Below, one piece after another: positions 15,101 to 63,636 of a DNA stretch of 64,000 nucleotides. The DNA is taken from the IMG/VR virus record IMGVR_UViG_3300045988_062648, positions 26,514 through 90,513 of that record; one strand, given 5' to 3'. This stretch comes from a virus. The notes below the pieces were generated by a model. That model did not search any database. It was not told the origin of the DNA and saw only the letters and a program-made list of their open reading frames with translations. Positions within the stretch are counted from its first letter, which is position 1, and every line of letters starts with the position of its first letter. Made by a program: the position numbers and the translations under genes.

Positions 15101-18100
15101 AATACAGAAGTATTATCTACCACAAATCAAAATCCCGTACAATCGACTGAAACCTCGCAGACGAACAATCCATCAGCTGTCACGTCCGAAACGCCCACAG
15201 CGCAAGCAAATAGGCAAAACGGCAATGTTCCGCCAACTCAAACACCATCTCAAACGGCTACATCAGAGCCAATAAATGTTCGTGTTGGTACTCGCAGTGG
15301 TAATCCTTTTATTACTGCAATAAGTGATACAGGAGCACAAAATCAAAATGGTACACTTGTTCCTACAACAGTAGCTGGTCGTTATAGACTGCAAACACAA
15401 GAAGAACAAATACTTAATAATGATAATTTCTATGATAAAGAGAATGGTGTTTCTGTTATAGATGGTGATTATAAAATTACTCAAGAACCAATAGTCATAC
15501 TTGATAATGATGGAAAATATGTTATAGAAGAGAAAGGATTATTGAGTAAAGTAAATGACGAGAAGCCCCCCGTAGAAGATAACGGTGGAACTCAACAAGG
15601 TGGAAACTCTTTTCAAGATGCTATTAGAGATAAAGAAACTCAACAAGGTGTAGTACAACAAAGTCAAGACGATGCAACCTCTTCTACGGGGGGCGAGAGT
15701 CAAGTAGATAGTTTTATCCCAGTAGAAGATTTAAGTCAAGCTGTAGCTGCTAGAATGACTGATATCAATGTTCTTGACTCAAATCTTGATTTAGACGCTA
15801 AAGCTCAACAATATAAAGAACAACTTAATCCTGAAGAATTTGGTGTTACAAGAGAAGAACTTGATAGAGTTATAGATGAACGTATAGCTGGTTTTAAACA
15901 ACTTAAAGAACATCTTGCTACACTTCAAAATCCTCAAGCTCAAGCTGCTACTGGAATAGCTTTTGCAGCTAGACTTATGGAACCTACTAGTAATGTATTT
16001 TCATTAATGTTTGCTAGTAGTATGTCTAGTTTTGTTCAAGAATATGCTAAGTCAATGATTATACCAAAGACTACAGATGGTCGTTATGTAATTAATCTTA
16101 GGTCTTTTCTTAGACAGCTTAGAGACGCTCTTGGCTCAAATAATAAAGATGTTATTCTTCCTATATATCGTCAAATTAAAACTTATTTCCTTAGTGCTGA
16201 CGGTAAAGCAAATTATGTACTTGATAATTATGAAACGTTACTTGATGATAGTGTATTAGATAATCTTGATAAGTCTGTAGAACAAATCAGACAAGAACAA
16301 AATAATAATGTAACGACATTAAGAGTAAATATTAATGACTTTATAGAAGCAGCCAATAACGTTTACGATGATGCTAGACGTCAAGAATACTTTAATGTTC
16401 TTGATAATCTTAAAGTTGGAGATAAACTTACTCTTAGAACTCTCGATGGTTACATAGAAGTATCTAAAGGAAATGTAGTAGTAGGTAATATGTCTATTGC
16501 TAAAGTTACTCCTGATGGTAGATATTATGTATATAATGAAGGTTGGAGAGAAGATGTTAATATTGGTTCTAATGGACAAATTATAAGTGATGCTAAACAA
16601 ATAATAGAAGATATATTTACAGGACAGTCTGTAAATCATACTAGTCTTCGTAAAATTATTACTGATGCCATTACTGCTAGAGATATTTCAAAAAATCTAG
16701 TTAATCGTTTTGCAGCTAATCCTATTATAAATGATTTAGCTAATCGTTCTAGAGGAGAACAAGCTGGAGAAAGAATATTCTTTGTAGATGATAAGACAGG
16801 TCTTATTGACTATGATAGAATACTTCGTCATCTTGTAAAACTTTGGAATTATTCTTTTGTTAGTAATAAATCAATAGTAACAAATGATGATATAAAAGCT
16901 AGTCTTAATAATTGGTATGAAAAACTTTATCATACTTATAATAATATTAATTATCTAGCTCAACAACAAGATGTTACTGTTAGTTACATGAATGAAGGAG
17001 CTATTAATAGAAAAGTAGAAAATGATACAGCTAATGCTTATGAACAATTTGAATATGCTTCAAATGGTATTGCTGATTTATCTCAAGCTGCTCTTGGAAT
17101 AACTGCTCCCATAACTAATACAATGGTAATATCAGGACATAATGGAGAATCTTCTACATGGAGTGCTGGTAGTACAGTTGTAGCTATTTATAGTAGAAAT
17201 ACTAAACCTGATTTTGTTAAAGCTTATGGTCTTAGACTTACAACAGATGAAATGAAGCAAAATGCTACATTTAAAGCTATGAATGATGCTATGCAGAATA
17301 GACTTATTTCTATTATAAATAGTTTAATAAGTAATAATTCTGATGAAAACTTTAGTAAACTTGTAGATACTATAACGTCCATTCTAGCTTGTAGAAATTT
17401 TACTGATTACGTAAATCCTAAGACTAAAGTTCCAATATATAGAGCTATGTCTGGAAGATTCCAAATTAGACCTGTTACTTATAGAAATACTCCTAATATT
17501 AAAGGTATTGATATAATATATACAAGTCCTGATGGTCGAATGAGTAACTTCCATATTTATAATCATGGTGCTAATAGACCTCAAATAGGTTATAAACCGG
17601 CTAATACAAACAGATTTGTATTTACTGATACTGATAGTACTATTACTGGTTCTAGGATAGCTACTGATTTTATGAACTTTATAGCTCCTTATGTAAACTT
17701 TAATATAGCTCAGGCTGGTATAGCTCTTGATAATAATCCTAATGCTGATTATGCTGGTTTTATAACTCATAAAAACGGAAAAGTAGTTGTTAATATTCCA
17801 ACAGAAGATAATACAATTGGATTTAATGAAGAATATGATAGTTATAGTCAATTTGTTCTTAGTAATAATCTAGTCAAAGTTAATACTTTTGTTGGTCAAA
17901 ATGGTAAGAACTTTAGTTATCAAAATGGAAATCAACGTGCTAATCAAGTTCTTTATGTAGATAGTGAGTTGGGAACTACAACCCCCGTAGAAGAAACGAG
18001 ATATATTAATTCTAACTCTGATGCAGCTCTTAATCAACAAGTTTATGATATACTTAACTCTAATGAGCCAACTAGTAATACAGGAGAACGTATATTCCAA

Positions 18101-25200: not shown

Positions 25201-28200
25201 CAGAAGATTTTGCTAAACTTAATACCCGTCATGCTAGAAATAATGCTATTGTTCAATCTATGCTTAATATACTTCAAGATGTAAAGAATCTTGAAGAAAA
25301 TCTTTCTCGTTCTAATTCAGATGATATAGAAGCTAGTATAGATAAATGTCTTGGGGATAATGCTAAAGCTGAACGAGAAAATCGTAGCCAGTATAATGTA
25401 TTTGACGAAATGCGTTATCAAGAAGAAGCTATGAGTGGTGCTGTCCTTAAAGGTGCTAGCGTATTTATGGATAGTGTATGTTCTATATGTAATGTTGTTA
25501 AACCTACACTTCGTGGTGGTGTTAAAGTTTCTTATGATACTAAATTTTATAATCAAGAAGAAATTACCAAACGTTACGGTTTAAATAAAAATGATATTAG
25601 TAAAGGACGTATTCGTGTAGTACATAATCAATATGGCTGGAGTTCAGATAATAGAAATGTTATTGGACGACTTATAACACCTTATAGTTCAGAAACTACA
25701 GCTTATATTCTTGATGCTATCAAGAAAGGTGCTATGCCAAATGTTAATCAATTTACTTTCCCAGTTCTTAAACATTTGGTTAATCTTGGTATAGATTATG
25801 ATACTGCTATATCATTTATGGCAAATCCTGCTATAAGTACAATAATACGTAATAATAATAGATTTAATTCTATTTATAGTAATGAGTTTGGAAATGCTAT
25901 TCATGAAAGTATTAACGAAATAGCTCGTCAACTTGGTATAAAAGTAGATGAAAAAACACCTGTAATAAGTGTTCTTGCTTCTGTTCAATCTAAGTTTGGC
26001 GATGTTATTAATAAGATATTTAAAGTAGATAAAGAAGACGTTAAATTTAGTCTTGAAGAAGAAGCTGCTGCTACTCTTGCTTTAATGCCTGATAAACTTA
26101 TAGCAAGACTTAAAGATAATGGTATCTTTGGCACTACAACCCCCGTAGAAGAGAAGTTGATATTTGACTTAGGTAATATACTTATCTTTAATAGACTTCG
26201 TAATCAAGCACAAGAAATAGGTGGAGTAGCAACTGCTCTTAATCCAGATAAGTTTGGTGCTAAAATGAGTCTTTTTGCTACTAATCAAATATTTGATAAA
26301 ATACTTGGACAAATATATACTGATAGTAGTTATGTAGAAGAAAGAACAGACCCTATTCTTAGTATTAATGGAGAACATATACTTAAAAGTATTTATCCAG
26401 GTATTACAGGAGACCCAGAAAATAGTATAGAACCTGGAGTTCCAGCAATGCTTAGAGCAGATATTAGTAAAAGTACTTATCCATCTCTTGCAGCATTTCT
26501 TAAATATGCTACAGCTACTTCTTCTGTAATTGCTAAACAAGTTCTTCTTACTCAACATCCAGCTTTTATTCGTTTTTGTAACGGACTTGCAACTAAGTTT
26601 AGTGATGTTGTACAAGAAATGGACGAAAAGCAATATAATGATTTTCAAAAGTATGCTATTAGTTATTTCTACAATAATGTAGAAAGTATTAGGCGTCCAA
26701 TTGTACCAGTCAAAAACGAAGATGGTACTTATAGTTATAATATAGATAATAGCGATACTCCAGACAATGCTACTATTTCAATAGAAGATGCAGAACGTGA
26801 ACGAGTATTTGGTTATAATAGAGTTCCAGCTTTATCTATAGTTGAAAAAGTACAAGTTACTAGAAATGGTAAAACTATTAATAAGACTGTTACTCGTCCA
26901 ATAGAAATAGAAAATCTTAATCATCCAACTCAAGAAGAACTCAATGATTTTGCTCAATTTAGTCCTGCACAAAAAGTTAAGTTTATTAAAACTCATTTTG
27001 ATGATGCAGGAGTGTTCGATTATATTGATGTTCAACTTTATAATCCTACAATAAGAGGTTGGAGAACTGGTATGCAAACTCTTGAATATCTTGAATCTAA
27101 CGTTGGTGACAATGTTATATTTAATATGTTCTATGAAGCATATAATAATCGTAATCCTCTTGTTGCTATGGCTGCTAGAGATGTAATTAAATATGCAATA
27201 CAAGTTGAAGGTTATCGTATGCGTCAAACTGCTGCTGGTAAAGTTATTAGTAATAAACCTCTTAATACTGGTTATGAAGAAGGTGGAATGAATTTCTTTG
27301 CAGAAGTTGCTGAAATGTTTTCTACTATTGGTACAACAGGTAGTGCTATATTTGAACAAACTAGTATGGATGAAATATATGAGAGATATTTTAGAAGTCA
27401 TATAGATAATCCTCATATTAAATCATTTAGACTTACTAATTCAAGTATGATTAAGTTTAATATTCATACTCGTAGTTACGATATGCTTGTAATGGAGAAA
27501 AAGTATGATGAAACTTCTGATGATGATAAAATAGCTAAAGAGTTTAATAATAATTGTGCTAAAGCAGGAATTAAAACTTATCATCCAGCTTCTAATACAT
27601 ATACTACAAATAATTATCTTAGAGTATATCGTGATAAAAAAGTTGTATTATATAAAATAAAAGATCTTGGTGATAAAGTTATACTTTATCCTCTTAATAA
27701 ACTTCAACCTAATGAAACTACTGAATGGTCAGCTAATGATAATAATAATGAATATCCTAATAAAATAACTTATGAAGGTATTATTCATGATTATCAAAAA
27801 CAACTTTTTAATGATGCTGCATTACAATTTACTAGTGGTTGGATAAAAGAAAGTAATAATGCTAGAAAACAAAATGGTGAAAATCCTGTAGTTTATTATA
27901 AGCATCGTAGAGATTATAGCAATCAAGCAGCTACAGTTGATTTCAATCTTGATAAACTTGCTAATGAACAAGGAGGTGCTTTAGCACAAGCTCGTGAACA
28001 AATTAGAAGTAATTTTGAACGACTTAATGCTAAACATCTTTATATGCGTAATGCTGCTCTTGGTAATTATATATTTGTTCCAGGTTTTGAAAATGCTAGT
28101 AAGCAAACTATTACAATGAGAAATGGAGCTAAAAGTACATTCCTTATTGCAAAAGTAGATACAGACAGAAGTAGAACAAATAAACGTTATTTAGGTAATA

Positions 28201-33533: not shown

Positions 33534-33561
33534 GTTGGGATATACAACCCCCGTAGAAGAG
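33534..33561 (+). repeat. dispersed motif, copy 8 (forward extended GTTGGGATATACAACCCCCGTAGAAGAG; intergenic, 1 nt after the RNAP stop)
   Basis: Core 33548-33559. The 3' part AAGAGGTGA pairs with TCACCTCTT at 33592-33600 (9-bp stem, 26-nt loop). Confidence 0.9.
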
Positions 33562-35924: not shown

Positions 35925-36476
35925 TTATTTTTCTGTCGAACCAAAACCGCCTTCTCCACGGTCAGTAGCTCCAAGTGTATCTTGTGTTTCAACTTCATCC
36001 CAAACAATACGTTCACGGCGACGAACAAGTATTTGAGCGACTCTGTCTCCAACACTATATTCAGCACAAGAACTTGTTGGGTCATCTATTTGACGATGAA
36101 CAAGCATAAGTTCTCCACGATAACCTCCATCAAGGGTCCCTGGGGCATTCTGCATAACAGCAAGAGTTTTAGTATTACTACTACGAGGACGAATTTCCAT
36201 TTCGTAATCTTTAGGAAGAGCAAAATGAAGTCCAGTATGATAAACTACTCGACCATCATCTTTATACTCTATTGAATGAACATAAACATCCATACAAGCA
36301 TCACCAGGTTTGGCATAAGTAGGAAGTTTAACTGTTTCATCTTCACGCCAAACTTTAACGTAACAGGTATCAAGTTGACTAAGTACATCTTTTACCATGT
36401 ACTCCAAATCATCTCCACGTCCATTTTGTACAGCTAGTGTTATAGCACTAGTTAAAACATCTACAATTTTACTCAT
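35925..36476 (-). CDS. dut: dUTP diphosphatase (trimeric dUTPase)
   Basis: dUTPase motifs: PGDACMDVY (motif 1-like), GTLDGGYRGEL (motif 3) and C-terminal RGEGGFGSTEK (motif 5). Confidence 0.85.
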   Translation of the reverse strand: MSKIVDVLTSAITLAVQNGRGDDLEYMVKDVLSQLDTCYVKVWREDETVKLPTYAKPGDACMDVYVHSIEYKDDGRVVYHTGLHFALPKDYEMEIRPRSSNTKTLAVMQNAPGTLDGGYRGELMLVHRQIDDPTSSCAEYSVGDRVAQILVRRRERIVWDEVETQDTLGATDRGEGGFGSTEK

Positions 36477-37089
36477 TTCTTTTAAGTTTTAATTTACGTA
36501 AATTATTTAAATATTCAATACGATTTTTATTTTCTTGTTCTAACTTATATTTACGTTCTTCTTCTTTTCTTTCTTTATCTTTTTTAATTATAGTATCTAT
36601 ATTACCTTTAAAAGATTGGTCAACAGGAACTTTATAAGTATCTTTATCTATTATTTGAATAAAGTTTTTTTCAACTAAACTTTTAATAGCTTTACTTATA
36701 GTTCCTTTATCAAGAGTAAGAACTTCCTCAAAAGTATTACGTTCTATTTTAACAACATTAGTATTTTTCTTTAGACAATCAAGTATGTAAAAATATACAA
36801 GTTGTGTAGATCTATTACAATAAGCAATATCGTAAAGTCTATCTATTTTGACTCGTACACTTTCATTTAAATACTTACAAGGTCTATTAATTACTTCACC
36901 TTTGTTATTATATTCAGGAACTGTCATTTCATCTATATTAAGAAGTTCTTGTTCATCAATAATAATTTCATTCATAACTAGCTTTAGACCGTTGACTATA
37001 CGGCAAAAATACGGCAAAAAGTTGATAATTAGGCAATATTTATAAGATTTTGTTTCCTCTACGGCAACATTTTGTTGAAAAGTTGCCAA
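36469..37089 (-). CDS. putative winged-helix DNA-binding protein / transcription regulator (206 aa)
   Basis: Helix-turn-helix-like segment …LDKGTISKAIKSLVEKNFIQ…. First gene after a 345-bp intergenic region that carries paired motif copies. Confidence 0.35.
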   Translation of the reverse strand: MATFQQNVAVEETKSYKYCLIINFLPYFCRIVNGLKLVMNEIIIDEQELLNIDEMTVPEYNNKGEVINRPCKYLNESVRVKIDRLYDIAYCNRSTQLVYFYILDCLKKNTNVVKIERNTFEEVLTLDKGTISKAIKSLVEKNFIQIIDKDTYKVPVDQSFKGNIDTIIKKDKERKEEERKYKLEQENKNRIEYLNNLRKLKLKRNE

Positions 37090-37232
37090 AGTGTCAACAA
37101 AAAAATCTCCTAACTAATTGATAGTCAGGAGATTACAACGGTCTAAGTAGTTCCTTATATAATATATATAAGTACAATACAAATATACTTATCTTTATTT
37201 ACATCACCATGCGCATTAACTCTTTTAACACT

Positions 37233-37260
37233 CTTGGGATATTAAACCCCCGTAGAAGAG
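37233..37260 (+). repeat. dispersed motif, copy 9 (forward CTTGGGATATTAAACCCCCGTAGAAGAG; intergenic)
   Basis: Core 37247-37258. Confidence 0.9.
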
Positions 37261-37386
37261 TGTACATCGTAGCCTTACTTTGGTAAAAAGTTCAATCATC
37301 ATTTGTTTCAAAAGCATATTCACTCTATCTAACTCTATTTTGTCTAGTACCAATATCACTACTATCTAGACTAAGACTACAACATC

Positions 37387-37417
37387 TCATTTCTTCTACG
37401 GGGGTTGTGTATCCCGA
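37387..37417 (-). repeat. dispersed motif, copy 10 (reverse; revcomp GTCGGGATACACAACCCCCGTAGAAGAAATGAG; intergenic)
   Basis: Core 37392-37403. With copy 9 it forms an inverted pair bracketing about 130 bp. Confidence 0.9.
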
Positions 37418-37434
37418 CTTACAGCTTCACCAAG

Positions 37435-38505
37435 TTACACCGCAACTCCGTAACCTGCTGCACTAATAAGAGCATGGTTCATTACTTTATTAGCACCTCC
37501 ATAGCAAAGAGTATCCATACGTTTTTCTCCTTCACTATTATCTACATTAGAATAATAACCTGTTATAGCATTATATGCTCCCCAAGCTGTACCCATTATT
37601 CTATCTTGTCCTGCACCAGTATGATAATAATCCCACATAGCTACTATTTTATTAGCTTTACGCATACTTATTTTAGTAGTTTCAAGAGTATAATAGTCAC
37701 GTCTAAAGAGTTTATTTAAACCGAACACACTATCATAATCTTGTAAAGCCATTCTTTCAGCTTCTGTAAGATTAAGATTAGCAATATACTCCATTACTTG
37801 TTTGTCACTCATTTTAATCTTTGTTAGACTTTCATAAAGTTCTTTTGAATCATGAGCATATTTACAAGCTATTCTAAGAATTTCACTACCACGTTCAAGT
37901 TTTTCTTTTGCTGTACGAGTATGTCTTATACGAATATAACTATCAGCATTATCAAAAGCACTATTAAGCATATTAGTACAGAATACTCTTACAGGAGCAA
38001 ATAGAATACTAATTGAACCACTGCCATCATGAGTATTACTAAATATAAGATAAGATTTAACTGGGTCACCACTTACATCAAAATCAGCAGGTATCTTTGC
38101 ACTAATAAATATTTTATGTCCAAGACCATAATATCCAGCTGTTTGATATTGAGCTTTATCGATACCTATTGCATCATCAAAGAATTTAAAAGCATCAATA
38201 TTTTGTACAACTTCATATTTAGATTTAACCATTCCAAGAGGAATATTTTTATCAGTACGATAAGTTGCATAAGCTCCAGCACATTCACGATAAATATGAC
38301 CTTTGTGAGCAAAGTCATTACTTTGTTTATCTATCTCATTATTACCTTTAATACTGAATGGCATTTTAGCTACAAGAGGACATTTTTCAACAGTAAAATC
38401 AAGTCCTGCTTTATGCATTACTTCTTCGGCTGTACGACAATCAGTAACATCTTTACCAATACCAACAGACCAGGGAAGTCCTTTAACACTTCTATAATTA
38501 TTCAT
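37435..38505 (-). CDS. DUF932-family protein (phage/plasmid-associated)
   Basis: …LIFSNTHDGSGSISILFAPVRVFCTNML… matches the NSHDGS…R-x-C-x-N signature of DUF932. Confidence 0.5.
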   Translation of the reverse strand: MNNYRSVKGLPWSVGIGKDVTDCRTAEEVMHKAGLDFTVEKCPLVAKMPFSIKGNNEIDKQSNDFAHKGHIYRECAGAYATYRTDKNIPLGMVKSKYEVVQNIDAFKFFDDAIGIDKAQYQTAGYYGLGHKIFISAKIPADFDVSGDPVKSYLIFSNTHDGSGSISILFAPVRVFCTNMLNSAFDNADSYIRIRHTRTAKEKLERGSEILRIACKYAHDSKELYESLTKIKMSDKQVMEYIANLNLTEAERMALQDYDSVFGLNKLFRRDYYTLETTKISMRKANKIVAMWDYYHTGAGQDRIMGTAWGAYNAITGYYSNVDNSEGEKRMDTLCYGGANKVMNHALISAAGYGVAV

Positions 38506-40009: not shown

Positions 40010-40877
40010 TATAACTAAATTTATTAAGTTCTTTTTTAATCATATTAGCAATAATTCTAGCATTAGGATGTGCTCGCTTATCAGCACGAAGTTTTATAAT
40101 ATGACGCCATTCATCTACAGAATAGGTATATACAACTTCTGTTGCAGTATCGAGAGGAAGTACACCACGAGCGTCTTGACGTTGTATACCAATATCTACA
40201 AGAAGTTTATATTTATTAAAAGAATCATTACAACTATCTCTAAAAATAGATGCTTTTTTATGAGAATCACACCATTCTTCAAAAATAGGTTTGTTATTTA
40301 GATAATCTACTTCTTCATCAGTCATCCAATGAGGACGACAAATAGTACCATCTTCATAAACATAACGAGTACTTTGTTCTGCTATATTATTAGGACTAAC
40401 TCTATTAAGTTCTCTACTTGTACTAATTTGAGTTGTAATCTTAAAAGTATATCGTATCATTTCAAATGCTCGTTCACTATAATTAGCAAACTCATTAGCA
40501 CTTATTTCGTAATTAGAAAGTTGATTAGCAAAATTTATATTATCAAGTTTCCAATTACCATTAAATACAACTATAAAAGATTTAGGATAATAATTAGCCA
40601 GTAAATCAATATCTATTCCTACTAATTTTTGATTCATTACTTTACTAACTTGATATAAACTATGAAGCCATACAGTAATCTCTTCATCAGTAGGAATTAC
40701 ACAATAATGAGTTTCATGTCTAAACATACTCCAATGATGATTTTTATATAGATTTTCTACTAGTTTTTCATCATTACCAGTTTCTTTCTTATAACAAACT
40801 CTTGCACAACGAGCAACGTGAGAAACTATGTTCTCACCTTGCTCTATCAATTCAATCTTCGGTTCTATTATTTTCAT
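40002..40877 (-). CDS. thyX: divergent ThyX-like flavin-dependent thymidylate synthase
   Basis: N-terminal NHHWSMFRHETHYCVI (HxS…H ThyX-like), …QSTRY… and C-terminal …ARGVLPLDTATEVVYTYSVDEWRHIIKLRADKRAHPNARIIA… resemble conserved ThyX blocks. The canonical RHR motif is not evident (SRELNR instead), and about 90 aa are inserted after the N-terminal His block. Confidence 0.45.
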   Translation of the reverse strand: MKIIEPKIELIEQGENIVSHVARCARVCYKKETGNDEKLVENLYKNHHWSMFRHETHYCVIPTDEEITVWLHSLYQVSKVMNQKLVGIDIDLLANYYPKSFIVVFNGNWKLDNINFANQLSNYEISANEFANYSERAFEMIRYTFKITTQISTSRELNRVSPNNIAEQSTRYVYEDGTICRPHWMTDEEVDYLNNKPIFEEWCDSHKKASIFRDSCNDSFNKYKLLVDIGIQRQDARGVLPLDTATEVVYTYSVDEWRHIIKLRADKRAHPNARIIANMIKKELNKFSYNV

Positions 40878-41017
40878 AAATACAATCTCCTATACATTTA
40901 ATATCTTTAATTACAGCAGTATATTCAAAAAATTCTTGTATAATATTTTCAACTTCTTGAAAACTACGTGCTACTACATATTTATCAGCAAGATTATTAC
41001 AACTTACTGTATAAAGT

Positions 41018-41422
41018 TTACTTTTTTGTATCACAAAATCTAAGTTTATGAGTTAATTCTTCGGTCATAAAACAATACTTTACTCCATTATCTGTTTCAA
41101 GTATAAATTCAGGATGTTCAACAAACAAAGGAAAATCTTTCTTTACACCCCAACACCTACCTGTATGATAAGGATTATTAGGTTCAGATTTTTCTTCATC
41201 TATTTCAATAATATAAATACAATCATCTTTGTGACTAGCACATTCATCACATGCTTTATTGCTAAAACCTACACATTTACCATTAAGTTCATTAACTTCT
41301 TTAGCAGCTTTTTTGGTAAGTTTTTGGTTCATTAGTATAGCAGTATCATCATCCATTTCTCTACCACATATAGGACAAGCATAGTGAACTAATGCCACAC
41401 CTATTACATCTTCTTTTGTCAT
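41018..41422 (-). CDS. zinc-ribbon / Cys-rich protein (134 aa)
   Basis: CPICG…C…C, CDEC…C cysteine pairs. Confidence 0.4.
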   Translation of the reverse strand: MTKEDVIGVALVHYACPICGREMDDDTAILMNQKLTKKAAKEVNELNGKCVGFSNKACDECASHKDDCIYIIEIDEEKSEPNNPYHTGRCWGVKKDFPLFVEHPEFILETDNGVKYCFMTEELTHKLRFCDTKK

Positions 41423-41436
41423 AATATTAAATTTTA

Positions 41437-41468
41437 GTTGGGATTTACAACCCCCGTAGAAGAAAATG
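41437..41468 (+). repeat. dispersed motif, copy 11 (forward GTTGGGATTTACAACCCCCGTAGAAGAAAATG; 51-bp intergenic gap)
   Basis: Core 41451-41462. Sits 15-46 nt upstream (on the minus strand) of the start of gene 41018-41422. Confidence 0.9.
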
Positions 41469-41473
41469 TGATA

Positions 41474-41869
41474 TTATATTTCACTATCACCTAAACATAT
41501 TTTACGAGGTCTTATATCTCCTTCATTACCATTTTCAAAAATAGGTTTCTTACTATTTGCTGCAATAGTTTCTTTATTAATCCAAGATCTAAGCATTACA
41601 CTATAATTAGCAAGGTCTTCGAGAGTATCTATAAATTTCTCGTCATCAACTACAAATGTAGTATTAAGGAAATTTACTAAACGATTAACTTTGTCATATA
41701 TACGACCAATACCATAAGCAAGACCAATCTTATTCATGCCCTCATCAAAACTATTACCATAGTCATGATTTTTCTTGGCATAAAGTTGAATCATGTCTGT
41801 CACTACATTTACAAACTCGTCTACATCTTCATTAAACAGTTTGTCGTCAATTTCAATCTCTACTTTCAT
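41474..41869 (-). CDS. putative all-alpha NTP pyrophosphohydrolase-like protein (MazG-like), tentative
   Basis: …KKNHDYGNSF…IGRIYDKVNRL… resembles MazG-like phage pyrophosphatase families. Low certainty. Confidence 0.25.
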   Translation of the reverse strand: MKVEIEIDDKLFNEDVDEFVNVVTDMIQLYAKKNHDYGNSFDEGMNKIGLAYGIGRIYDKVNRLVNFLNTTFVVDDEKFIDTLEDLANYSVMLRSWINKETIAANSKKPIFENGNEGDIRPRKICLGDSEI

Positions 41870-42090
41870 AATTACTTAATAATTTAGTTTGTACACAAAT
41901 ATACAAAAATATTTGGCACACCACTATCGGAAATTGTATTTTTTATTTTCCTTTCTAAGCGTGCCAAATTCAAGAGTGGATAAGTTGTAAGGCCGAATAA
42001 TTTTAAAGCCACAGAGGCAAAATAAAGTGGCAAATTCGACCTATATCAGACTGGAGTACCGGTCTGCCAACCCATAAGCACCAAAACAAG

Positions 42091-42525
42091 TTAGCTGTTA
42101 TTATCAGTATGATTACCAAAAATAACGGCAAAAGCATCAGCTTCTTTATTAGCAGGAACTTCAATTTCTTTACATGTTGTAGGAAATGTTTTAACATAAT
42201 TATAAAACTTAAACATAGTCATATAATCACTATCAGTTTTACTAAATAGTTCTTGAATAGTAACAGCCATTATACGACTATAAGTTTTAAACGCTTCAAA
42301 CTTATCTTTTCCAAGACTTGAATAATCACTTGTTAGAATAGCAATATTTTTATTAAGTTGAGCAAGTTGAAATTTCTCCCAACTAGTTATCTCAATATTG
42401 TTCTTCTTACAATATTCAATCATATCAGCAATCATAAAATGAAGAGCTTTTGCAACAGTCATTACAAAAGCTCTTTGAATATTAGCTGTATGAAGTATTT
42501 GTTTTTGTTCTTCTGTCATAATCAT
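42091..42525 (-). CDS. hypothetical protein (144 aa)
   Basis: ORF preceded by a terminator and a motif copy. Confidence 0.45.
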   Translation of the reverse strand: MIMTEEQKQILHTANIQRAFVMTVAKALHFMIADMIEYCKKNNIEITSWEKFQLAQLNKNIAILTSDYSSLGKDKFEAFKTYSRIMAVTIQELFSKTDSDYMTMFKFYNYVKTFPTTCKEIEVPANKEADAFAVIFGNHTDNNS

Positions 42526-42624
42526 TTCTTTAGTTCACTATCTTTTACTACAGCTAGCCATATTACTAGCAAATATAATATCGCTGCTACTGCTTCCATA
42601 GTTAAGTTAATTAAAGAGTTCAAC

Positions 42625-42654
42625 ACCACCATCTCTTCTACGGGGGCGGCTCAA
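42625..42654 (-). repeat. dispersed motif, copy 12 (reverse CTCTTCTACGGGGGCGGCTCAAG; intergenic, between a terminator and the next gene start)
   Basis: Core 42635-42646. Confidence 0.85.
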
Positions 42655-42691
42655 GAAAAATCCCAGTAACACCATGAGTATTACTGGGATT
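42652..42691 (-). terminator. rho-independent terminator (minus strand)
   Basis: Perfect 11-bp stem aatcccagtaa / ttactgggatt with an 11-nt loop. On the minus strand it is followed by TTTTTCT. It sits 4 nt after the stop of gene 42695-43045. Confidence 0.65.
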
Positions 42692-42694
42692 AAC

Positions 42695-43045
42695 TTATAT
42701 ATCTAAATAATAAACAACACTTTCTTTATCTTCATCTTCTTTACGAATATAAACATCTGTTACTTCATTTAGATATTTAAGACTTGAATCATTCCATATA
42801 GGAGATAAACTAAAATTAAATAAGTTCTTTCTTTGAGTAACGGAATGCCAATTTCTATCATCAGTTGTATCATTACTTAATATAAGATAATAATCATCTT
42901 TATGAAGTTTAGCATTATATCTCTTACCAAAAGAATAAAACTTACGATAACTTATTTCATTGCTATAAAGTTTTTTATAACGAGGGTCTATATAACTTCT
43001 CGTATATTTTTGTTCTACTGCATCATAAGCACTAAGAATAGTCAT
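42695..43045 (-). CDS. hypothetical protein (116 aa)
   Basis: ORF. Confidence 0.45.
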   Translation of the reverse strand: MTILSAYDAVEQKYTRSYIDPRYKKLYSNEISYRKFYSFGKRYNAKLHKDDYYLILSNDTTDDRNWHSVTQRKNLFNFSLSPIWNDSSLKYLNEVTDVYIRKEDEDKESVVYYLDI

Positions 43046-43054
43046 ATTAAGTTA

Positions 43055-43651
43055 TTAAATATCAATTACAAGATAATCTTGTTTACTAGTATTAAGACGT
43101 ATTATTTCATCTTGATTAGCATATCTCCAATAACAATTAGAAGATTTACGTGTCATATTACTTTTAATAGCTTTTATAATATTCGCTCTAAAACTATTTG
43201 TATATTTTTCTGCGTCATGAGCATTTTTATATACTATTCGTTTTCCATTATCAAATATTTGAGTAATAGGAATACTTCTAGAACTTTGGGCTTTTTTAGC
43301 TTTATCATTATATAACTGATTATATATATTACTACACCATTCAAGATTAGTAACTATATTATTTTCTTTATTCTCATCTTTATGATTTATTTGCGGTAAA
43401 TTATTAGGATTAGGAATAAAATGTTCAGCTACAAGTCTATGAACGTAATATCTTTTTTGTTTATTATCTTTCCAAAGATACACAAATAAATATCCAGTAC
43501 CGTTATTACCAGGTTTTAAATATTTTTCATGTATATCTGTAAAAGAACCATCTCTTCTAATAATACGTCTAGAACATGATTTAACACGCCCAAAAGAATT
43601 AATTTTATATAGTCCTTCAAAATCTTTTATATCTTTCCATTCTTCATTCAT
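43055..43651 (-). CDS. HNH homing endonuclease (NUMOD4 + HNH_3 type)
   Basis: N-terminal …WKDIKDFEGLYKINSFGRVKS… (NUMOD4-like) and …VHRLVAEHFIPNP…INHKDENKENNIVTNLEW… (HNH_3-like). Free-standing between the ligase gene and downstream genes. Confidence 0.7.
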   Translation of the reverse strand: MNEEWKDIKDFEGLYKINSFGRVKSCSRRIIRRDGSFTDIHEKYLKPGNNGTGYLFVYLWKDNKQKRYYVHRLVAEHFIPNPNNLPQINHKDENKENNIVTNLEWCSNIYNQLYNDKAKKAQSSRSIPITQIFDNGKRIVYKNAHDAEKYTNSFRANIIKAIKSNMTRKSSNCYWRYANQDEIIRLNTSKQDYLVIDI

Positions 43652-45754: not shown

Positions 45755-46904
45755 ATTTAAGTGTATCTTTTATAAAATTATTTATTTCATCTATTGTGAA
45801 TTTATCATGTAAATCACTAAAATCTTTACATTCAAAATTCTCTAAACCAAATTCACCACGAGTAATAAAAAGATATGGTATTCCATAAGTTTCTTCTAGA
45901 TATTTAGCACCAGCTCTACCAGTAGTATCAAAATCTAGAAAACTTAAAATCATACCACCATCTGAAAGTTTACGTTGAAGATATTGATATTCATTCTCTT
46001 TAAGTTTATAATTTTCACTCGGAAGATTTATAATACCAATATTGAGTTTGACACTACCACCCCCGTAGAAGAGCGGATGATTATCAAGATGACTTCCTAG
46101 ACTCAATCTATCTTTACTACTTTTAGTTATGATAATATAATCATAATTATTAAGTTCAAGATTAGGTAGACCTTCAAGCACATTACAATTAGTTATAAAT
46201 TTAAGTTGAGTTTTTCTATTACGAAGAGGAAAATAAAGTTTAATAAGTGAAATACCTTTACGATTTTGTCCTATAAAGTAAGCATAACAAGGATCTTTAC
46301 TTTTATAATAATATTTAGGTTCAGTATCTCTTGTTCTGTTAATATAATATTGGTCTACAGGATAAACAAAATGAGTATTAAGATAACTTAAACTTACACC
46401 CCATCTACCCCATATATCTTTATCATATTTATTCCAACTTCTAGTAGCAACTTCTATAATAGGTCTTTTCTTTTTGCCTTGTTGAATAGCATTTTTTATA
46501 CTATCGTCAATGAAAGGGTCAACTTCTTTTCCATCTATAATATCAGAGAATGTATAAGCTATATGTTTAAGAACAAAATAAAAATCTTCTTTATTATTAG
46601 TTTCTATTTGTCTATTATACACAATACTTAATACATAAGCTACAACTCCATATACATCTTCAAAGAAACCAAAACCTCCAAAATCTCTTACTTTAAGTCT
46701 ACCTTTGGCATTATATTGAATACCCATACTTTTATTAACATCATCGTCACGAAATACACTCTCGATTAGATGATTATGTTCTATACAGTCTTTTACTGTT
46801 TCAAGTGGTATATCAAGATACTTACTAACAATAAGTTCTTGACTAACTTTACTTTCGATATAACTCTTAGTAAGTTTAGAAGTATTAGGTGTTCTTTTAA
46901 GCAT
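45714..46904 (-). CDS. Toprim-domain protein (primase-like)
   Basis: …NVLEGLPN… (conserved Glu) followed about 80 aa later by …ILSFLDFDTTGRAGAKYL… (DxD), as in DnaG-type Toprim domains. No clear zinc-binding N-terminal domain. Confidence 0.35.
   Translation of the reverse strand: MLKRTPNTSKLTKSYIESKVSQELIVSKYLDIPLETVKDCIEHNHLIESVFRDDDVNKSMGIQYNAKGRLKVRDFGGFGFFEDVYGVVAYVLSIVYNRQIETNNKEDFYFVLKHIAYTFSDIIDGKEVDPFIDDSIKNAIQQGKKKRPIIEVATRSWNKYDKDIWGRWGVSLSYLNTHFVYPVDQYYINRTRDTEPKYYYKSKDPCYAYFIGQNRKGISLIKLYFPLRNRKTQLKFITNCNVLEGLPNLELNNYDYIIITKSSKDRLSLGSHLDNHPLFYGGGSVKLNIGIINLPSENYKLKENEYQYLQRKLSDGGMILSFLDFDTTGRAGAKYLEETYGIPYLFITRGEFGLENFECKDFSDLHDKFTIDEINNFIKDTLKYVELRFKHKAICY
46050..46076 (+). repeat. 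dispersed motif, copy 13 (forward GACACTACCACCCCCGTAGAAGAGCGG; inside the minus-strand primase-like gene)
   Basis: Core 46060-46071; antisense encodes PLFYGGGSV. Confidence 0.9.
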
Positions 46905-49948: not shown

Positions 49949-51370
49949 TTAATCTACAACTATTACATCATTTATTTTATCATAAGCAGCAATATTTTTA
50001 ATGTTATTAAGTAAAATATGACTTACGGGCAATCTACGTTCCTGCAAATGCCTTTGTTCGAGAGTATTAGATATATATAAGGTAAATAATTTAATTGGAC
50101 TATTAAAATTTACCTTATCCAATCTATAAATATAACTTTCAATATCATTACATAACGGAGAAGTTATAATAACAATATCCACATCAATAGCAAGTTTTTT
50201 ATCTGGAGCATTACCTACACTAAGAACATTAATTCGATTATTATTAAACGAACTCATATTCATAGTACATTGAAGTTGTGCTCCAGCCATTTTAATCATG
50301 CCAGCTTTAGCTCCACTTTTATAAGTTACAAAATTACCATTTATATCTTTAAGTTCGATAGAATCAAGTTTATCATGAAAACACTCACAAACTTGTTTAT
50401 TAAAACTCTTATTAAGATAATCTCTAACTTGTGTAGCAAAATTAGCTTTCTTATTTATAATAAGAATTTTCTTATAGCTATGTTCTTTTACTATTTCATA
50501 TGTTGCTTGAAGTTTATTTTCATTACTAGCTAAAAGCTCTGTTCTAGCACGAATAATATCATAAGTAAGTTTAGCTCTATCTGATAAAGATATAGGATTA
50601 AATAGAAAATCTATTTGCCTATTATATTCTATATTCATATCAAGATTTTCAGACCAACCATTAGATATTGCAACTCTTCTACAAACTTCTTCTGCACTAA
50701 CATTATTATCTTTATCTCCAATTCTTGCTTTATCAAGCATTTTTAAATCACCAAAAATATTAACGCTAGTAGTAATATAATCATTATGTTGTTTAAGAGT
50801 TTTCTCGTCTTTAGAGTTAAGTTGAACGTCAACCAACAACTCTTCTACGGGGGTCGAGAGCCTAATACTTCTTACTTCATCTTCTTTAAATGTTTCTAAT
50901 AGAGGACAAATTTTATAAAGTTTACTTCTATCTTCATCAGCTATAAGTTTATTAACAATAACTAATTTGAACTTTCCTTTATTAAGAGCTTCACATATTA
51001 TATTAGTTATATCTTCAACATGATACAGAATAACAAGTGAAAAGATACCATTAAGAGTAAACAGATTATCTTCTACAAGATTTTTAGAAACTACTTTTAT
51101 AGTTTTTTTACTAATAAGGTCTTTAAACTCTTTATTATTCTCTTCTTCATTTTGATGTGTAAGAAAATCAACAAGTTGACTTCTTTCATTAAAATCAGAA
51201 GTAATAATAAAAGTACGTCCAAAATTTTTATTATTATAAACTCTTTGGAGTATTCCAAGCATTAAAACTTTATCATTTACACCAAAAGGTATAATAGCTG
51301 TTCCAATACCTTTTTTAATTCTCCATTCTTCTATAGCTTTTATAAATAATTCACCAAGTTTTTCATTCAT
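49949..51370 (-). CDS. hypothetical replication-module protein (473 aa)
   Basis: ORF immediately downstream of the DNA polymerase. No clear Walker A. Contains one motif copy. Confidence 0.45.
   Translation of the reverse strand: MNEKLGELFIKAIEEWRIKKGIGTAIIPFGVNDKVLMLGILQRVYNNKNFGRTFIITSDFNERSQLVDFLTHQNEEENNKEFKDLISKKTIKVVSKNLVEDNLFTLNGIFSLVILYHVEDITNIICEALNKGKFKLVIVNKLIADEDRSKLYKICPLLETFKEDEVRSIRLSTPVEELLVDVQLNSKDEKTLKQHNDYITTSVNIFGDLKMLDKARIGDKDNNVSAEEVCRRVAISNGWSENLDMNIEYNRQIDFLFNPISLSDRAKLTYDIIRARTELLASNENKLQATYEIVKEHSYKKILIINKKANFATQVRDYLNKSFNKQVCECFHDKLDSIELKDINGNFVTYKSGAKAGMIKMAGAQLQCTMNMSSFNNNRINVLSVGNAPDKKLAIDVDIVIITSPLCNDIESYIYRLDKVNFNSPIKLFTLYISNTLEQRHLQERRLPVSHILLNNIKNIAAYDKINDVIVVD
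50840..50862 (-). repeat. dispersed motif, copy 14 (reverse CTCTTCTACGGGGGTCGAGAGCC; inside minus-strand gene 49949-51370)
   Basis: Core 50842-50853. The coding strand reads …SIRLSTPVEELL…. Confidence 0.9.
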
Positions 51371-53692: not shown

Positions 53693-54237
53693 AATATTTC
53701 ATAAGCACTATAATCATCATTTATTGCAGCATTATACCATTTAATTAGATCATTAGTGAATACTTCACCTTTATTTTCATCTATTAGTTTAACACGAGGA
53801 GAATAAGTAATACTAATTGTTTGTTTAGCATATTTAAATACTTTATCTTTCCATACATTAATATTGGTTACACTAAGTATTATATTGCTTGGTTCTAACC
53901 CACATAAAAGAATATGTTTTTTGGCTAGACTAAATTTACTCATAGTACGCTTTAAACAGTCATAATAATAACTTTGTGCAACTTCATATCCATTAAGACG
54001 AGTAGGACTACATTGAAGCATTGGTGCAATTATATAACTTTGCTCTAGCCCCCCCGTAGAAGAGATGGTTTGCACCACCTCTTTTACTCCTACATCATCT
54101 TCAATATTCTCTGTATCAATATATGGAACAACAATAGCTAAATTACTAAAAGGATTACCGAAAACTTGTGGTTCACGATAACCCTTTAGATTTAGTTTAA
54201 GAGGACAATTATCACAAGTCATCATAAGCATCTTCAT
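53689..54237 (-). CDS. possible uracil-DNA glycosylase-like protein (family 4-like), tentative
   Basis: N-terminal C-D-N-C-P-L followed by …VFGNPFSNLAIVVPYID…, reminiscent of the UDG family 4 CxxCxL…GxxP motif. Adjacent to the polymerase gene. Confidence 0.25.
   Translation of the reverse strand: MKMLMMTCDNCPLKLNLKGYREPQVFGNPFSNLAIVVPYIDTENIEDDVGVKEVVQTISSTGGLEQSYIIAPMLQCSPTRLNGYEVAQSYYYDCLKRTMSKFSLAKKHILLCGLEPSNIILSVTNINVWKDKVFKYAKQTISITYSPRVKLIDENKGEVFTNDLIKWYNAAINDDYSAYEIL
54046..54066 (+). repeat. dispersed motif, copy 15 (forward CTAGCCCCCCCGTAGAAGAGATGG; inside minus-strand gene 53689-54237)
   Basis: Core 54049-54062. Confidence 0.85.
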
Positions 54238-57366: not shown

Positions 57367-58221
57367 TTAATCTTTTAATTCATCTTCTGTAAATGCACTA
57401 AGAACGAAATTTCTAACAGCTTTTTCGGCATTACGATATAATCGTTTAGCTGTTTTAATATCTATATTCATAGTACATTTTCTTACGTCTTCAAGTTCAG
57501 CAGGAGTAAATGCTCTAACTGCTAAATCTTTAAGAATAGGATTCATACTATAATACCAACTACGAGCTTCATCAAGAGTTAATATAACATCTATATGACG
57601 CTTTATATTAGTATTTGGCTCTTTTGGTGCATTATCTGTATTGGGATTTACAACCCCCGTAGAAGAATGTGCATCAAGCTCATTTGCTTTTATAAGCTTA
57701 TATACAGCTGTACTTTCTCTTTCACAATTAACAATCAATTCATTTGCTTTATATTTAAGAATATTATCTTCATCTTTAAGACAACAATGACCCTCAAGTG
57801 CTCCAAATATACATTGATTACATTTAGTTTCATTATCTGGATGCGGAATACACTCTTCAAGTTTATATTTACAACCATTAAGGTTAATAGTATCACCAAT
57901 ATTCATTACAGGAATAGAACCAACACTTAAATCATGAATTTCAGTTTCTTCTTCAACTTTTTCCCAGTGCATTCGTTTATTAGCGTTGCATATCTTAAAC
58001 ATTTCGTCTTCATCATTAGCAGATAAAGTTGTAGCATGAGTTGCAAGTAAACACTCTCCTTTATTACCAAATATACATGAGCGGCAATCTGTTTTACCAT
58101 GTTCAGTATTTACAAGACTATAATTATCTCTATTTTGTTTTCTTTTTATTTCCTTTTTCATATTATTTCCTCCAATACTATCTGTTTTTGTATATTTTAA
58201 ATTCGCATATAAAAGGCTCAA
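57367..58221 (-). CDS. Cys-rich hypothetical protein (284 aa) with a duplicated C-terminal motif
   Basis: Several CxxC-like pairs. Repeated …LAVRAFTPAELEDVRK… / …FVLSAFTEDELKD…. Contains one extended motif copy. Confidence 0.45.
   Translation of the reverse strand: MSLLYANLKYTKTDSIGGNNMKKEIKRKQNRDNYSLVNTEHGKTDCRSCIFGNKGECLLATHATTLSANDEDEMFKICNANKRMHWEKVEEETEIHDLSVGSIPVMNIGDTINLNGCKYKLEECIPHPDNETKCNQCIFGALEGHCCLKDEDNILKYKANELIVNCERESTAVYKLIKANELDAHSSTGVVNPNTDNAPKEPNTNIKRHIDVILTLDEARSWYYSMNPILKDLAVRAFTPAELEDVRKCTMNIDIKTAKRLYRNAEKAVRNFVLSAFTEDELKD
57640..57671 (+). repeat. dispersed motif, copy 16 (forward extended ATTGGGATTTACAACCCCCGTAGAAGAATGTG; inside minus-strand gene 57367-58221)
   Basis: Core 57654-57665. 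The full intergenic-type extended form sits inside a coding region. Confidence 0.9.
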
Positions 58222-59444: not shown

Positions 59445-59475
59445 CATTTCTTCTACGGGGGTTGTATATCCCAAC
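59445..59475 (-). repeat. dispersed motif, copy 17 (reverse; revcomp GTTGGGATATACAACCCCCGTAGAAGAAATG; intergenic)
   Basis: Core 59450-59461. Confidence 0.9.
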
Positions 59476-62235: not shown

Positions 62236-62825
62236 TCCTTTTCTTTATTTTTATCATTCTCTTGATAAATAATAAAAGGAATATCTAATGTATTTTTAGT
62301 TTTAGGACAAACTATAACTGATTCATCATTTATATTTGCTGTAATTGGAAAATCATATTCTAAATTTGATTTATCTTTAAGTTCTTCTTTATTAGCTTCA
62401 ATATTATTATTATTAAGATTACCAACTAGCCAAGATAGTTTATTATAAGTTTTATTATTTGAAATACGATTCTTTGCTTTTTTTACTTCTTCTTTTCTAT
62501 TTACTTTAGCTTCTTTATTTATTCCTATTTCTTCTTTATATATTTCATAAGTATCAAAAGCATAATCTATAAAATCGTTTATTAATTCTTTAATTCTATC
62601 TCTTTTTTCCTTATCTGTTATGTTATCCTTTAATATTACTTTTGTGGCTACAATAACTTTATTATTTATATCTATTGTATTACAACCTGTTATAGGACTA
62701 AATTCTTCAGATGTTCCACATACGAATGGAAGATAAATACGAGGAATATCAGTATTATTTCTAACACTATTTATAAATTCTAGATATTTTTTACGTTCCT
62801 CTTCATTATAAAAATTTTGTTTCAT
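62226..62825 (-). CDS. hypothetical protein (199 aa), K/E-rich
   Basis: ORF. Confidence 0.45.
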   Translation of the reverse strand: MKQNFYNEEERKKYLEFINSVRNNTDIPRIYLPFVCGTSEEFSPITGCNTIDINNKVIVATKVILKDNITDKEKRDRIKELINDFIDYAFDTYEIYKEEIGINKEAKVNRKEEVKKAKNRISNNKTYNKLSWLVGNLNNNNIEANKEELKDKSNLEYDFPITANINDESVIVCPKTKNTLDIPFIIYQENDKNKEKEKR

Positions 62826-63231
62826 AAAGACTTAAATAATTAATTATACTACCTTTAAAAATATATTTTATATTAATAATATATTTATTTTTAACTCCAC
62901 TTTCATATATAATGTTGTTACTAATAAGTTCTTTAACTGCATTATAATATGTAGATTTCTTTAATTTACTATATTTAGTAAAATCATCGCTTTTAATATA
63001 AACAGTATTAGTATCAGATATTAGAATTAGTTTTATATATTCTATAAGAAGTAATGCTGGTCGAGTTAGTTTTGGAGCTATCATTGCAAGACTAATATCT
63101 TGCATTATAAAGTTTCTATCTTTAATATAAGGAGTTCTTATTATAATACCTTTATTAGTTCTTTCTTCTTTATAATCTAGAATAATATTTTGATTATAAG
63201 GAACTTTACTTATATAATCTCTTTTATCCAT
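62806..63231 (-). CDS. putative DNA-binding (winged-helix-like) protein (141 aa)
   Basis: …KSTYYNAVKELISNNIIYESG… HTH-like segment. Similar in style to the 36469-37089 protein. Confidence 0.35.
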   Translation of the reverse strand: MDKRDYISKVPYNQNIILDYKEERTNKGIIIRTPYIKDRNFIMQDISLAMIAPKLTRPALLLIEYIKLILISDTNTVYIKSDDFTKYSKLKKSTYYNAVKELISNNIIYESGVKNKYIINIKYIFKGSIINYLSLYETKFL

Positions 63232-63381
63232 TCGTTTACTATTAAAATCTTCTACAAATATACCACTAAAATTCCAAAATAATGGAATAATTACGTTAAA
63301 TTAACTTAAAAACTCCAATATAGTGGAAATTTTAGACTTGTAACTTATTGATTATCAGGCAGTTACAATGAGCAGTAATAT

Positions 63382-63636
63382 CTATATAGATATAATATAA
63401 TAGTCTTTATTATTACTATTATTAGTATTAGCATTAACTTGGGCACTACAACCCCCGTAGAAGAAATGAGAACTACATTCTCTTATTTTATTATTTTGTT
63501 CTTTATTATCTGTACTACCATAAACAAAAATAGCCCTACTACTTTCACAAGCAATAGGACTATCCCTTTCATTAACATCATTTATATGCAGTTTTAGCTC
63601 GACATCAAAGATAGTGAATTTATGATAATGAACCAA
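63382..63636 (-). CDS. doubtful ORF (84 aa) overlapping a motif copy
   Basis: Contains FFYGGCSAQ, encoded by the antisense of the dispersed motif. The same peptide appears in clearly spurious antisense ORFs at 7812-8075 and 17870-18139. Confidence 0.2.
   Translation of the reverse strand: MVHYHKFTIFDVELKLHINDVNERDSPIACESSRAIFVYGSTDNKEQNNKIRECSSHFFYGGCSAQVNANTNNSNNKDYYIISI
63438..63470 (+). repeat. dispersed motif, copy 18 (forward CTTGGGCACTACAACCCCCGTAGAAGAAATGAG)
   Basis: Core 63452-63463. Shares the trailing GTAGAAGAAATGAG with copy 10. Confidence 0.9.

Follow-up and report, generated by a model that had tools for sequence, protein, structure and literature searches.

A conserved inverted motif pair at the head of an origin-like RepL control region in a crAss-like phage

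The intergenic region and its inverted motif pair

This analysis concerns a 64,000-nucleotide stretch of viral DNA, referred to throughout as the window (IMG/VR virus record IMGVR_UViG_3300045988_062648, positions 26,514 to 90,513), and within it an inverted pair of sequence motifs located between two minus-strand genes. The window phage is crAss-like and belongs to the family Intestiviridae. Upstream of the pair lies a DUF932 gene of 356 amino acids (aa) (37435-38505, minus strand; Pfam 1.9e-44), and downstream lies a RepL-like winged-helix gene of 168 aa (36469-36975, minus strand, ATG at 36975), an assignment supported by Pfam (RepL, 6.7e-5), BLASTP (p-crAssphage gp43 RepL, 3e-6) and independent gene calls. 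The pair is a fixed, conserved structural element formed from two copies of a dispersed motif, and it heads an origin-like RepL control region.

A repeat search places the two arms at 37236-37259 (plus strand) and 37392-37415 (minus strand), where they are 24 nucleotides (nt) long, 88% complementary and separated by a 132-nt spacer. Copy A (GGGATACACAACCCCCGTAGAAGA, 37392-37415, minus strand) is sense relative to the minus-strand genes and begins 20 nt past the DUF932 stop codon, and copy B (GGGATATTAAACCCCCGTAGAAGA, 37236-37259, plus strand) is its inverted partner, antisense to the genes. Both arms fit the 24-nt consensus of the window lineage, with a CCCCCGTAGARGA-like core. The pair is far beyond chance, because the core occurs 18 times in the window at two or fewer mismatches, versus 0.05 expected from shuffles. 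An earlier account prepared from the letters of the window, here termed the sequence-only reading, had recognized this pair as well as a second one in a 2353-aa open reading frame (ORF), which our analysis bears out at 15566 (plus) and 15693 (minus). It set the partner arm at 37387-37413, a few bases off its measured position, and it rightly located the pair between the DUF932-like and winged-helix genes but gave 345 base pairs (bp) for a gap that extends over 459 bp (36976-37434). The enclosed segment, which it described as AT-rich, is ordinary in composition (31.8% GC versus 30.1% for the window). The largest of the small spacer ORFs is a 44-aa GTG ORF that nothing supports, and an Rfam search returned only tRNA at the gathering threshold and only chance-level matches in 36900-37600.

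Comparison with related sequences was used to ask how stable the arrangement is. Fourteen contigs encode the identical RepL-like protein, and the eight that we compared derive from different samples, with 94-95% identity in the region. The segment is present in the same orientation and without excision in eight of eight of these strain-level assemblies, and the motif cores are invariant across them. The closest IMG/VR relative, 073497, is ~76% identical around the pair, with DNA identity to the window of ~68-76% (a metagenome scan for further orthologues returned only its twin); both arms lie at the orthologous place in this genome, and the spacer is alignable. The pair is therefore neither mobile nor inverted in the assemblies compared.

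On the minus strand, the region 37236-37415 is predicted to fold as an interrupted hairpin of 6+15+2+13 bp (~36 bp) with a structured loop, with a free energy for the minus-strand RNA of -63 kcal/mol and a z score of -6.9. The stem extends 13 bp past the motif itself, with a 5' arm of AUGUUGUAGUCUU (37373-37385, minus strand) and a 3' arm of AAGGCUACGAUGU (37264-37276, minus strand). Inspection of this extension reveals that 5 of 12 pairs are doubly compensated relative to 073497 and that two more show G-U/G-C changes, while one stem pair passes among strains from U-A through U.G to C-G. These compensatory changes, which lie in the part of the stem beyond the motif, argue for selection on a single-stranded hairpin, and the G.U intermediates favour the gene-sense strand as the strand that folds.

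A motif copy or pair is also found downstream of DUF932 in cr271_1, L117, L121 and L123. The arrangement is a compact antisense-then-sense hairpin in cr271_1 and L121, and a looser antisense-then-sense arrangement occurs in 074430, where the antisense copy lies inside the 3' end of the DUF932 gene. Judged from these sequences, hairpin potential downstream of DUF932 recurs across lineages and is not universal. Every genome examined contains at least one long or perfect motif-on-motif hairpin. A perfect 19-bp example in cultured crAss002 (64741-64786; L141 14741-14786), near the 3' end of the replication block, offers a convenient experimental handle.

The dispersed motif across Intestiviridae

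The two arms belong to a motif whose family-wide distribution and conserved positions the sequence-only reading had overlooked. Its core (CCCCCGTAGAAGA / ACCCCCGTAGAAGA) carries a 5' extension that differs between lineages and is followed by a weak 3' rATG, giving an extended consensus in the window of TTGGGAyWyACAACCCCCGTAGAAGAr. Variant forms are present in the three other subfamilies represented: 14 copies of AGCTCCCCCGTAGAAGArATGTGA in cr271_1 (Obtuvirinae), 31 copies of (G/T)AC(C/T)CCCCGT(A/G)GAGGATGGA in p-crAssphage (Crudevirinae) and 27 copies of TTCCCCC(G/A)TA(A/G)AGGAG in crAss002 (Churivirinae), where the simulated expectation is at most 0.1. The motif thus occurs ~15-35 times per genome in four Intestiviridae subfamilies, including the prototypical crAssphage and the cultured crAss002. 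Searches of the literature with motif strings and for crAss repeats and motifs gave no description of it and only unrelated primer matches, which is not proof of absence.

Several general properties accompany this distribution. Across three genomes the strand of the motif relative to transcription is unbiased (~28 sense and ~34 antisense copies). The copies are more evenly spaced than random placement would give, with gap coefficients of variation of 0.53, 0.41 and 0.47 versus ~0.85 for random positions (P = 0.024, 0.001 and 0.00015, three genomes). Inverted pairs are enriched and direct pairs absent, as in p-crAssphage with six inverted and zero direct pairs. Orientation domains related to replication showed no consistent pattern in the window or in p-crAssphage. 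Between the window and 073497, five of the five motif sites in 33-43 kb hold both position and orientation.

Seven of 17 window copies fall within the 7% of sequence that is non-coding (P ~1e-4), and the other ten are coding. Sense coding copies are always read in the (T/P)PVE(E/D) frame; of the other frames, one has a stop and one reads PRRR. The clearest example lies in the SNF2-like helicase gene (50841-50854, minus strand; sense, STPVEE), where the motif occupies the same alignment column in four Intestiviridae subfamilies and the amino acids track the local variant (TPVEE, TPVEE, LPVEE, SPIKE). Since the protein follows the local DNA variant, selection acts on the nucleic acid, and the copies have all changed together with a putative trans-acting reader. 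Conservation at orthologous positions, even inside conserved genes where the motif dictates amino acids, together with the absence of strand bias, the even spacing and the concerted change, implies a co-evolving reader with a genome-wide job. Candidate jobs of this putative reader include replication, packaging, protection and global regulation.

The remaining copies in the window are distributed over both coding and intergenic DNA. In the first half of the window, coding copies are found at 6305-6318 (minus strand; core only, antisense), 7902-7915 (plus; sense, frame TPVE), 17981-17994 and 26139-26152 (both plus, full-length, sense, TTPVEE). The second inverted pair is made up of 15566-15579 (plus; coding, sense, PPVED) as its left arm and 15680-15693 (minus; coding, antisense, SSTGG) as its right arm. 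An intergenic copy (33547-33560, plus) lies between the 4749-aa ORF, whose stop it follows by 14 nt, and tRNA-Gln, which is downstream of it. Farther along, an antisense copy (41450-41463, plus) occupies a 51-nt intergenic gap, sense copies are intergenic at 42634-42647 and 59449-59462 (both minus), and antisense copies lie within the primase gene (46059-46072, plus) and in coding DNA at 54050-54063 (plus; SSTGG) and 57653-57666 (plus; full-length). The region upstream of the second RepL-like gene has a copy at its head (63451-63464, plus). For most copies, no degenerate inverted partner lies within 300 nt.

Beside the second pair lies a degenerate third copy (15716-15729, plus). This cluster (15566-15729) falls in a low-complexity part of the 2353-aa ORF and is conserved in 073497 (L032 267/386), and therefore paired copies can persist in coding DNA.

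Outside Intestiviridae, crAss001 (Steigviridae) has zero copies of the Intestiviridae motif. This genome (MH675552; L142/L143) does carry 27 copies of the 9-mer CTCCAGAAG, or 43 when the CTCAGGAAG and CTCAAGAAG variants are included, with ~1 expected. The 9-mer is found on both strands and its coding copies often read TPE(E/G), while the evenness of its spacing is not significant (P = 0.08); it may be an analogous dispersed motif of Steigviridae.

The RepL control region and the role of the hairpin

Downstream of copy B, the minus strand carries a series of features that lead into the RepL-like gene. A Bacteroidetes-type -7 box, TATATTTG (37180-37187, minus strand), lies ~50 nt from copy B and is conserved in an alignment of four lineages; it matches TAnnTTTG, an established consensus of Bacteroides promoters. 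A leader of ~75 nt connects this box to a terminator-like hairpin (37097-37134, minus strand) with a 13-bp stem, a 5-nt loop and a T-run. Among relatives, covariation is seen in the lower part of its stem, while CTGACTATCAATTAGTTAG, the upper part, does not vary. As a GC-containing hairpin (37134-37104) directly followed by a U-run, it has the form of an intrinsic terminator, unlike the long hairpin. The GTTGACA and T-run elements that the sequence-only reading had suggested as possible promoter parts at 37095-37140 resolve into this minus-strand structure (37134-37104 plus the T-run), followed by a sigma-70-like hexamer pair. Judging by its layout, the segment 37097-37187 (minus strand), from -7 box to terminator, could produce a small RNA or serve as an attenuator leader of the RepL-like gene.

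Closer to the gene, matches to the IHF consensus (WATCAANNNNTTR) occur within the terminator hairpin (TATCAATTAGTTA, 37111-37123, minus strand) and at 37015-37027 (minus strand). Each of the four RepL-like genes compared, of which the window and p-crAssphage contribute two apiece, has the same IHF-consensus box as the hairpin in its upstream region, and the two RepL upstream regions of the window account for 4 of its 20 IHF-consensus matches. As read from the sequence, the -7 box TATTTTTG (37004-37011, minus strand) probably belongs to the promoter of the RepL-like gene itself. This box overlaps a set of three TTGCCGTA repeats (36999-37067, minus strand; 36999-37006, 37010-37017 and 37060-37067), the third of which, GCCGTAGAGGAAA, is similar to the motif core. 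These GCCGTA repeats look like iterons or operators; they overlap the probable RepL promoter and are not conserved in 073497.

A comparable organization is found elsewhere in the family. RepL-like genes flank the replication block at both ends in the window phage, as in p-crAssphage; the second (62806-63231, minus strand, 141 aa) gives a BLASTP match of 2e-9 to p-crAssphage gp88. In p-crAssphage, each of the two RepL genes has ahead of it a convergent motif pair that folds as a long hairpin, and an Ori-Finder prediction puts an origin immediately upstream of the first repL (PMC10983915). At the locus studied here, origin-like character comprises adjacency to a Rep gene and IHF-type sites, with a spacer whose GC content equals the genome average. 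The upstream region of the second window RepL-like gene (63232-63480, minus strand) shares homology with the sequence ahead of p-crAssphage gp88, the site of a predicted origin, and contains a palindrome, TATATCTATATAGATA, and two CCAnTATnTTGGA direct repeats. Three IMG/VR contigs that are otherwise dissimilar here (L131, L132 and L135) match the hairpin box CTGACTATCAATTAGTTAGGAG over 19-22 identical bases; a match of 17 nt is near chance for the size of the collection, and the 22-nt extension in L131 is not.

The explanation we favour, to which we assign about an even chance, is that the long hairpin forms in a transcript or in single-stranded DNA and ends, processes or insulates upstream transcription. 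The arms are copies of a family-conserved dispersed cis-motif, each copy of which has co-evolved with a putative trans-acting reader, and one sense and one antisense copy would form the base of the ~36-bp interrupted hairpin on the gene-sense strand. Folding would most probably occur in the transcript running out of the DUF932 gene, or alternatively in single-stranded DNA during replication. With the upstream operon ending on one side of it and a conserved host-type promoter on the other, the hairpin would most likely function at the 3' end of a transcript, in processing or as an insulator, in the manner of RNase III or stabilizer structures. It would stand at the entrance to a RepL control region that appears origin-like by virtue of its IHF-consensus boxes, its repeats over the RepL promoter and its short, terminator-ended leader. 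The predicted 36-bp stem, with its covariation, has the form of RNase III hairpins, in which an interrupted stem of at least 20 bp lies between cistrons. The long interrupted sense-strand stem is like those of the T7 intercistronic RNase III hairpins and lambda sib, which differ in that they are not built from a motif dispersed genome-wide, the hairpin here being predicted from sequence.

A number of observations weigh against this explanation. Hairpins in RNA and in single-stranded DNA are indistinguishable from sequence, and the stability of the sense strand was rejected as evidence for RNA, since GC skew confounds it and coding pairs show the same asymmetry. The long hairpin lacks a U-run, being followed instead by AAGAGUGUUAAAAG, and thus does not qualify as a canonical intrinsic terminator. 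The majority of motif copies occur singly and show no consistent fold, such that hairpin formation is not the general function of the motif, and a hairpin leaves the choice of these particular stem sequences unexplained. The covariation is drawn from few independent sequences, namely one distant relative and closely related strains, and L117 and L123 have a single motif copy at the same position.

The alternative that survives best, though we regard it as rather doubtful, places the function in duplex DNA. Here the arms would be symmetric sites for a sequence-specific phage protein (the RepL-like initiator, an IHF/HU-like protein or another) flanking a segment that melts, in an origin or an operator, and the dispersed single copies would be secondary binding sites. 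Consistent with this, a pair adjoins the RepL-like gene here and both RepL genes of p-crAssphage, one of which has the Ori-Finder origin directly upstream, and IHF-consensus boxes and repeats lie nearby. The lack of strand bias, the even spacing and the way in which copies change together between lineages are as expected of a duplex site for a co-evolving protein. However, a pair of protein sites would not need compensatory stem changes beyond the motif, the AT content of the spacer is not raised above that of the genome, and the GCCGTA repeats are absent from 073497. Moreover, no RepL gene was detected in cr271_1, a genome that carries the motif and has a compact hairpin following DUF932, and this weakens the case for RepL as the reader of the motif.

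A role as the source of a trans-acting RNA is improbable. The motif-on-motif hairpins beside RepL-like genes would in that case be a precursor or master copy, whose processed arms direct a factor of the phage to the 15-35 dispersed copies, whichever way these are oriented and whether in RNA or DNA, for priming or regulation. Such a scheme would draw on the long or perfect motif-on-motif hairpin in each genome examined and on the ~26-30 nt common to the arms and the dispersed full-length copies, and it would account for the independence of orientation and for the way in which all copies change in concert. In addition, there is a resemblance between the virion RNA polymerases of crAss phages and RNA-interference polymerases (bioRxiv 10.1101/2020.03.07.982082). 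Set against these points, no effector protein is known and the argument is one from sequence, a protein reader is a simpler account of the same facts, and the coding copies share just the 13-14-nt core. If true, the most abundant phage family of the human gut would possess a recognition system that is guided by RNA and spans the genome.

We consider it very unlikely that the motif copies serve as promoters for a phage (T7/SP6-like) or host polymerase, with the pair as a convergent or bidirectional promoter module. The motif resembles single-subunit polymerase promoters in length and information content, and a TAnnTTTG box lies 45-60 nt from three copies each in the window and in cr271_1 (P ~0.01 and 0.004). 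We also take its 3' end, GTAGAAGAG, to resemble SP6 ATAGAAGAG. Antisense copies are nonetheless as frequent as sense copies, many lie within genes, the motif has no -33/-7 architecture, and a fixed-distance -7 box accompanies 0 of 31 p-crAssphage copies. In phage phi14:2, no upstream motif is common to the early transcripts made by the virion polymerase, and its middle promoters are sigma-70-like. Orientation statistics and the lack of a fixed downstream element led us to reject the T7/SP6-like idea, and association with host-type promoters was rejected as a general property, being weakly enriched in the window and cr271_1 and absent in p-crAssphage.

The mobile or invertible element proposed by the sequence-only reading, in which terminal inverted repeats would be the ends of a unit like a miniature inverted-repeat transposable element (MITE), is contradicted to the point of being barely credible: the pair shares with MITEs its 24-nt terminal inverted repeats around a short non-coding segment, but it lacks a target-site duplication (the flanks ...ACACTCTT| and |GACTTACA have no common direct repeat), its spacer is single-copy and matches only itself within the window instead of recurring as whole units, neither presence/absence polymorphism nor a second orientation appears in the eight assemblies or 073497, and no recombinase or transposase domain was found among the ORFs scanned, many small ORFs being without annotation. 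The order of sense and antisense copies is flipped at a comparable position in two other lineages, but these are too diverged to reveal inversion of the spacer itself. The looser idea of a regulatory module with promoter parts nearby fits the conserved control region.

Related systems and genome context

By analogy, the behaviour of the motif most resembles that of DNA uptake sequences or stoperators, although it qualifies as neither. Like the DNA uptake sequences (DUS) of Neisseria and the uptake signal sequences (USS) of Haemophilus, it has a short non-palindromic core with an extended consensus, is found on both strands, lies in coding DNA (in tolerated frames) as well as intergenic DNA, is spaced more evenly than random and forms hairpin-capable inverted pairs just downstream of genes; at the level of sequence, all of these DUS/USS properties were found. 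In contrast, DUS and USS are bacterial, occur at ~1 per kb and serve competence, whereas the motif occupies a lytic or plasmid-like phage genome at ~1 site per 3-6 kb, varies in sequence between phage lineages and involves no uptake machinery. The stoperators of Cluster A mycobacteriophages are likewise ~13-bp asymmetric sites, present 20-35 times per genome, partly in genes, with a co-evolving phage-encoded reader. Stoperators, however, follow the direction of transcription and are a feature of temperate phages whose repressor is known, in contrast to the balanced orientation of the motif (~28 sense, ~34 antisense).

Other systems are more distant. The repetitive extragenic palindromic (REP) sequences and bacterial interspersed mosaic elements (BIME) of enterobacteria are also dispersed short repeats, often in inverted pairs just past stop codons, and their hairpins in mRNA stabilize upstream messages. 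Each REP unit is palindromic, strictly extragenic and linked to RAYT transposases, whereas the units here are non-palindromic, without a consistent fold, and more than half of them (10 of 17) lie in genes, at orthologous codons. Chi sites share with the motif an asymmetric, dispersed character and an orientation-dependent mechanism, and by that analogy a motif present in both orientations could protect permuted linear DNA. Chi sites are 5-8 nt long and set by the host nuclease, in contrast to a core of at least 13 nt that differs between phages of closely related Bacteroides/Phocaeicola hosts, which makes a host Chi-like site unlikely. Finally, the locus is like iteron origins (pSC101, R6K, P1 repL/oriL) in having an initiator-like gene with upstream inverted repeats, IHF-consensus sites and direct repeats over the promoter, and unlike them in that its spacer is not AT-rich and its repeats are not conserved in the nearest relative; an origin role is putative.

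The crAss-like phages are the most abundant human gut viruses, and their replication origins, promoters and regulatory logic are for the most part poorly characterized. Inverted pairs ahead of RepL-like genes provide a concrete point of entry that can be tested, now that both crAss002 and p-crAssphage are cultivable.

With regard to the wider genome, plus-strand genes extend up to ~33.5 kb in the window and include the 2353-aa and 4749-aa ORFs. Beyond a tRNA-Gln, the minus strand carries a replication module that comprises PolB, primase, helicases, ligase, ThyX, dUTPase and a Gam-like gene. Among annotated genomes, the closest relatives are members of Intestiviridae, namely cr271_1 (65% DNA-polymerase identity), cr8_1 and p-crAssphage (48%, amino acid), and the window DNA is 100% identical over 6 kb to the 90.5-kb ENA contig ERZ1690078 NODE_87. 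Part of the ThyX gene (40097-40481) is ~85% DNA-identical to p-crAssphage while the remaining genome is far more diverged, which suggests recent exchange or unusually strong conservation of this sequence. An HNH homing-endonuclease gene (43055-43651, minus strand) shows 77% DNA identity over ~150 nt to Staphylococcus phage HNH genes.

Gene order also varies between two of the motif copies. The small genes at 41000-42700 of the window are arranged differently in 073497 (L126 600-2450), such that a 134-aa ORF (41018-41422) comes after the antisense copy in the window and directly after the sense copy in the relative. At a comparable gene junction in cr271_1 (74334), the motif is likewise in the opposite orientation. 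Comparison of these sequences suggests cassette reshuffling or orientation flips at motif sites.

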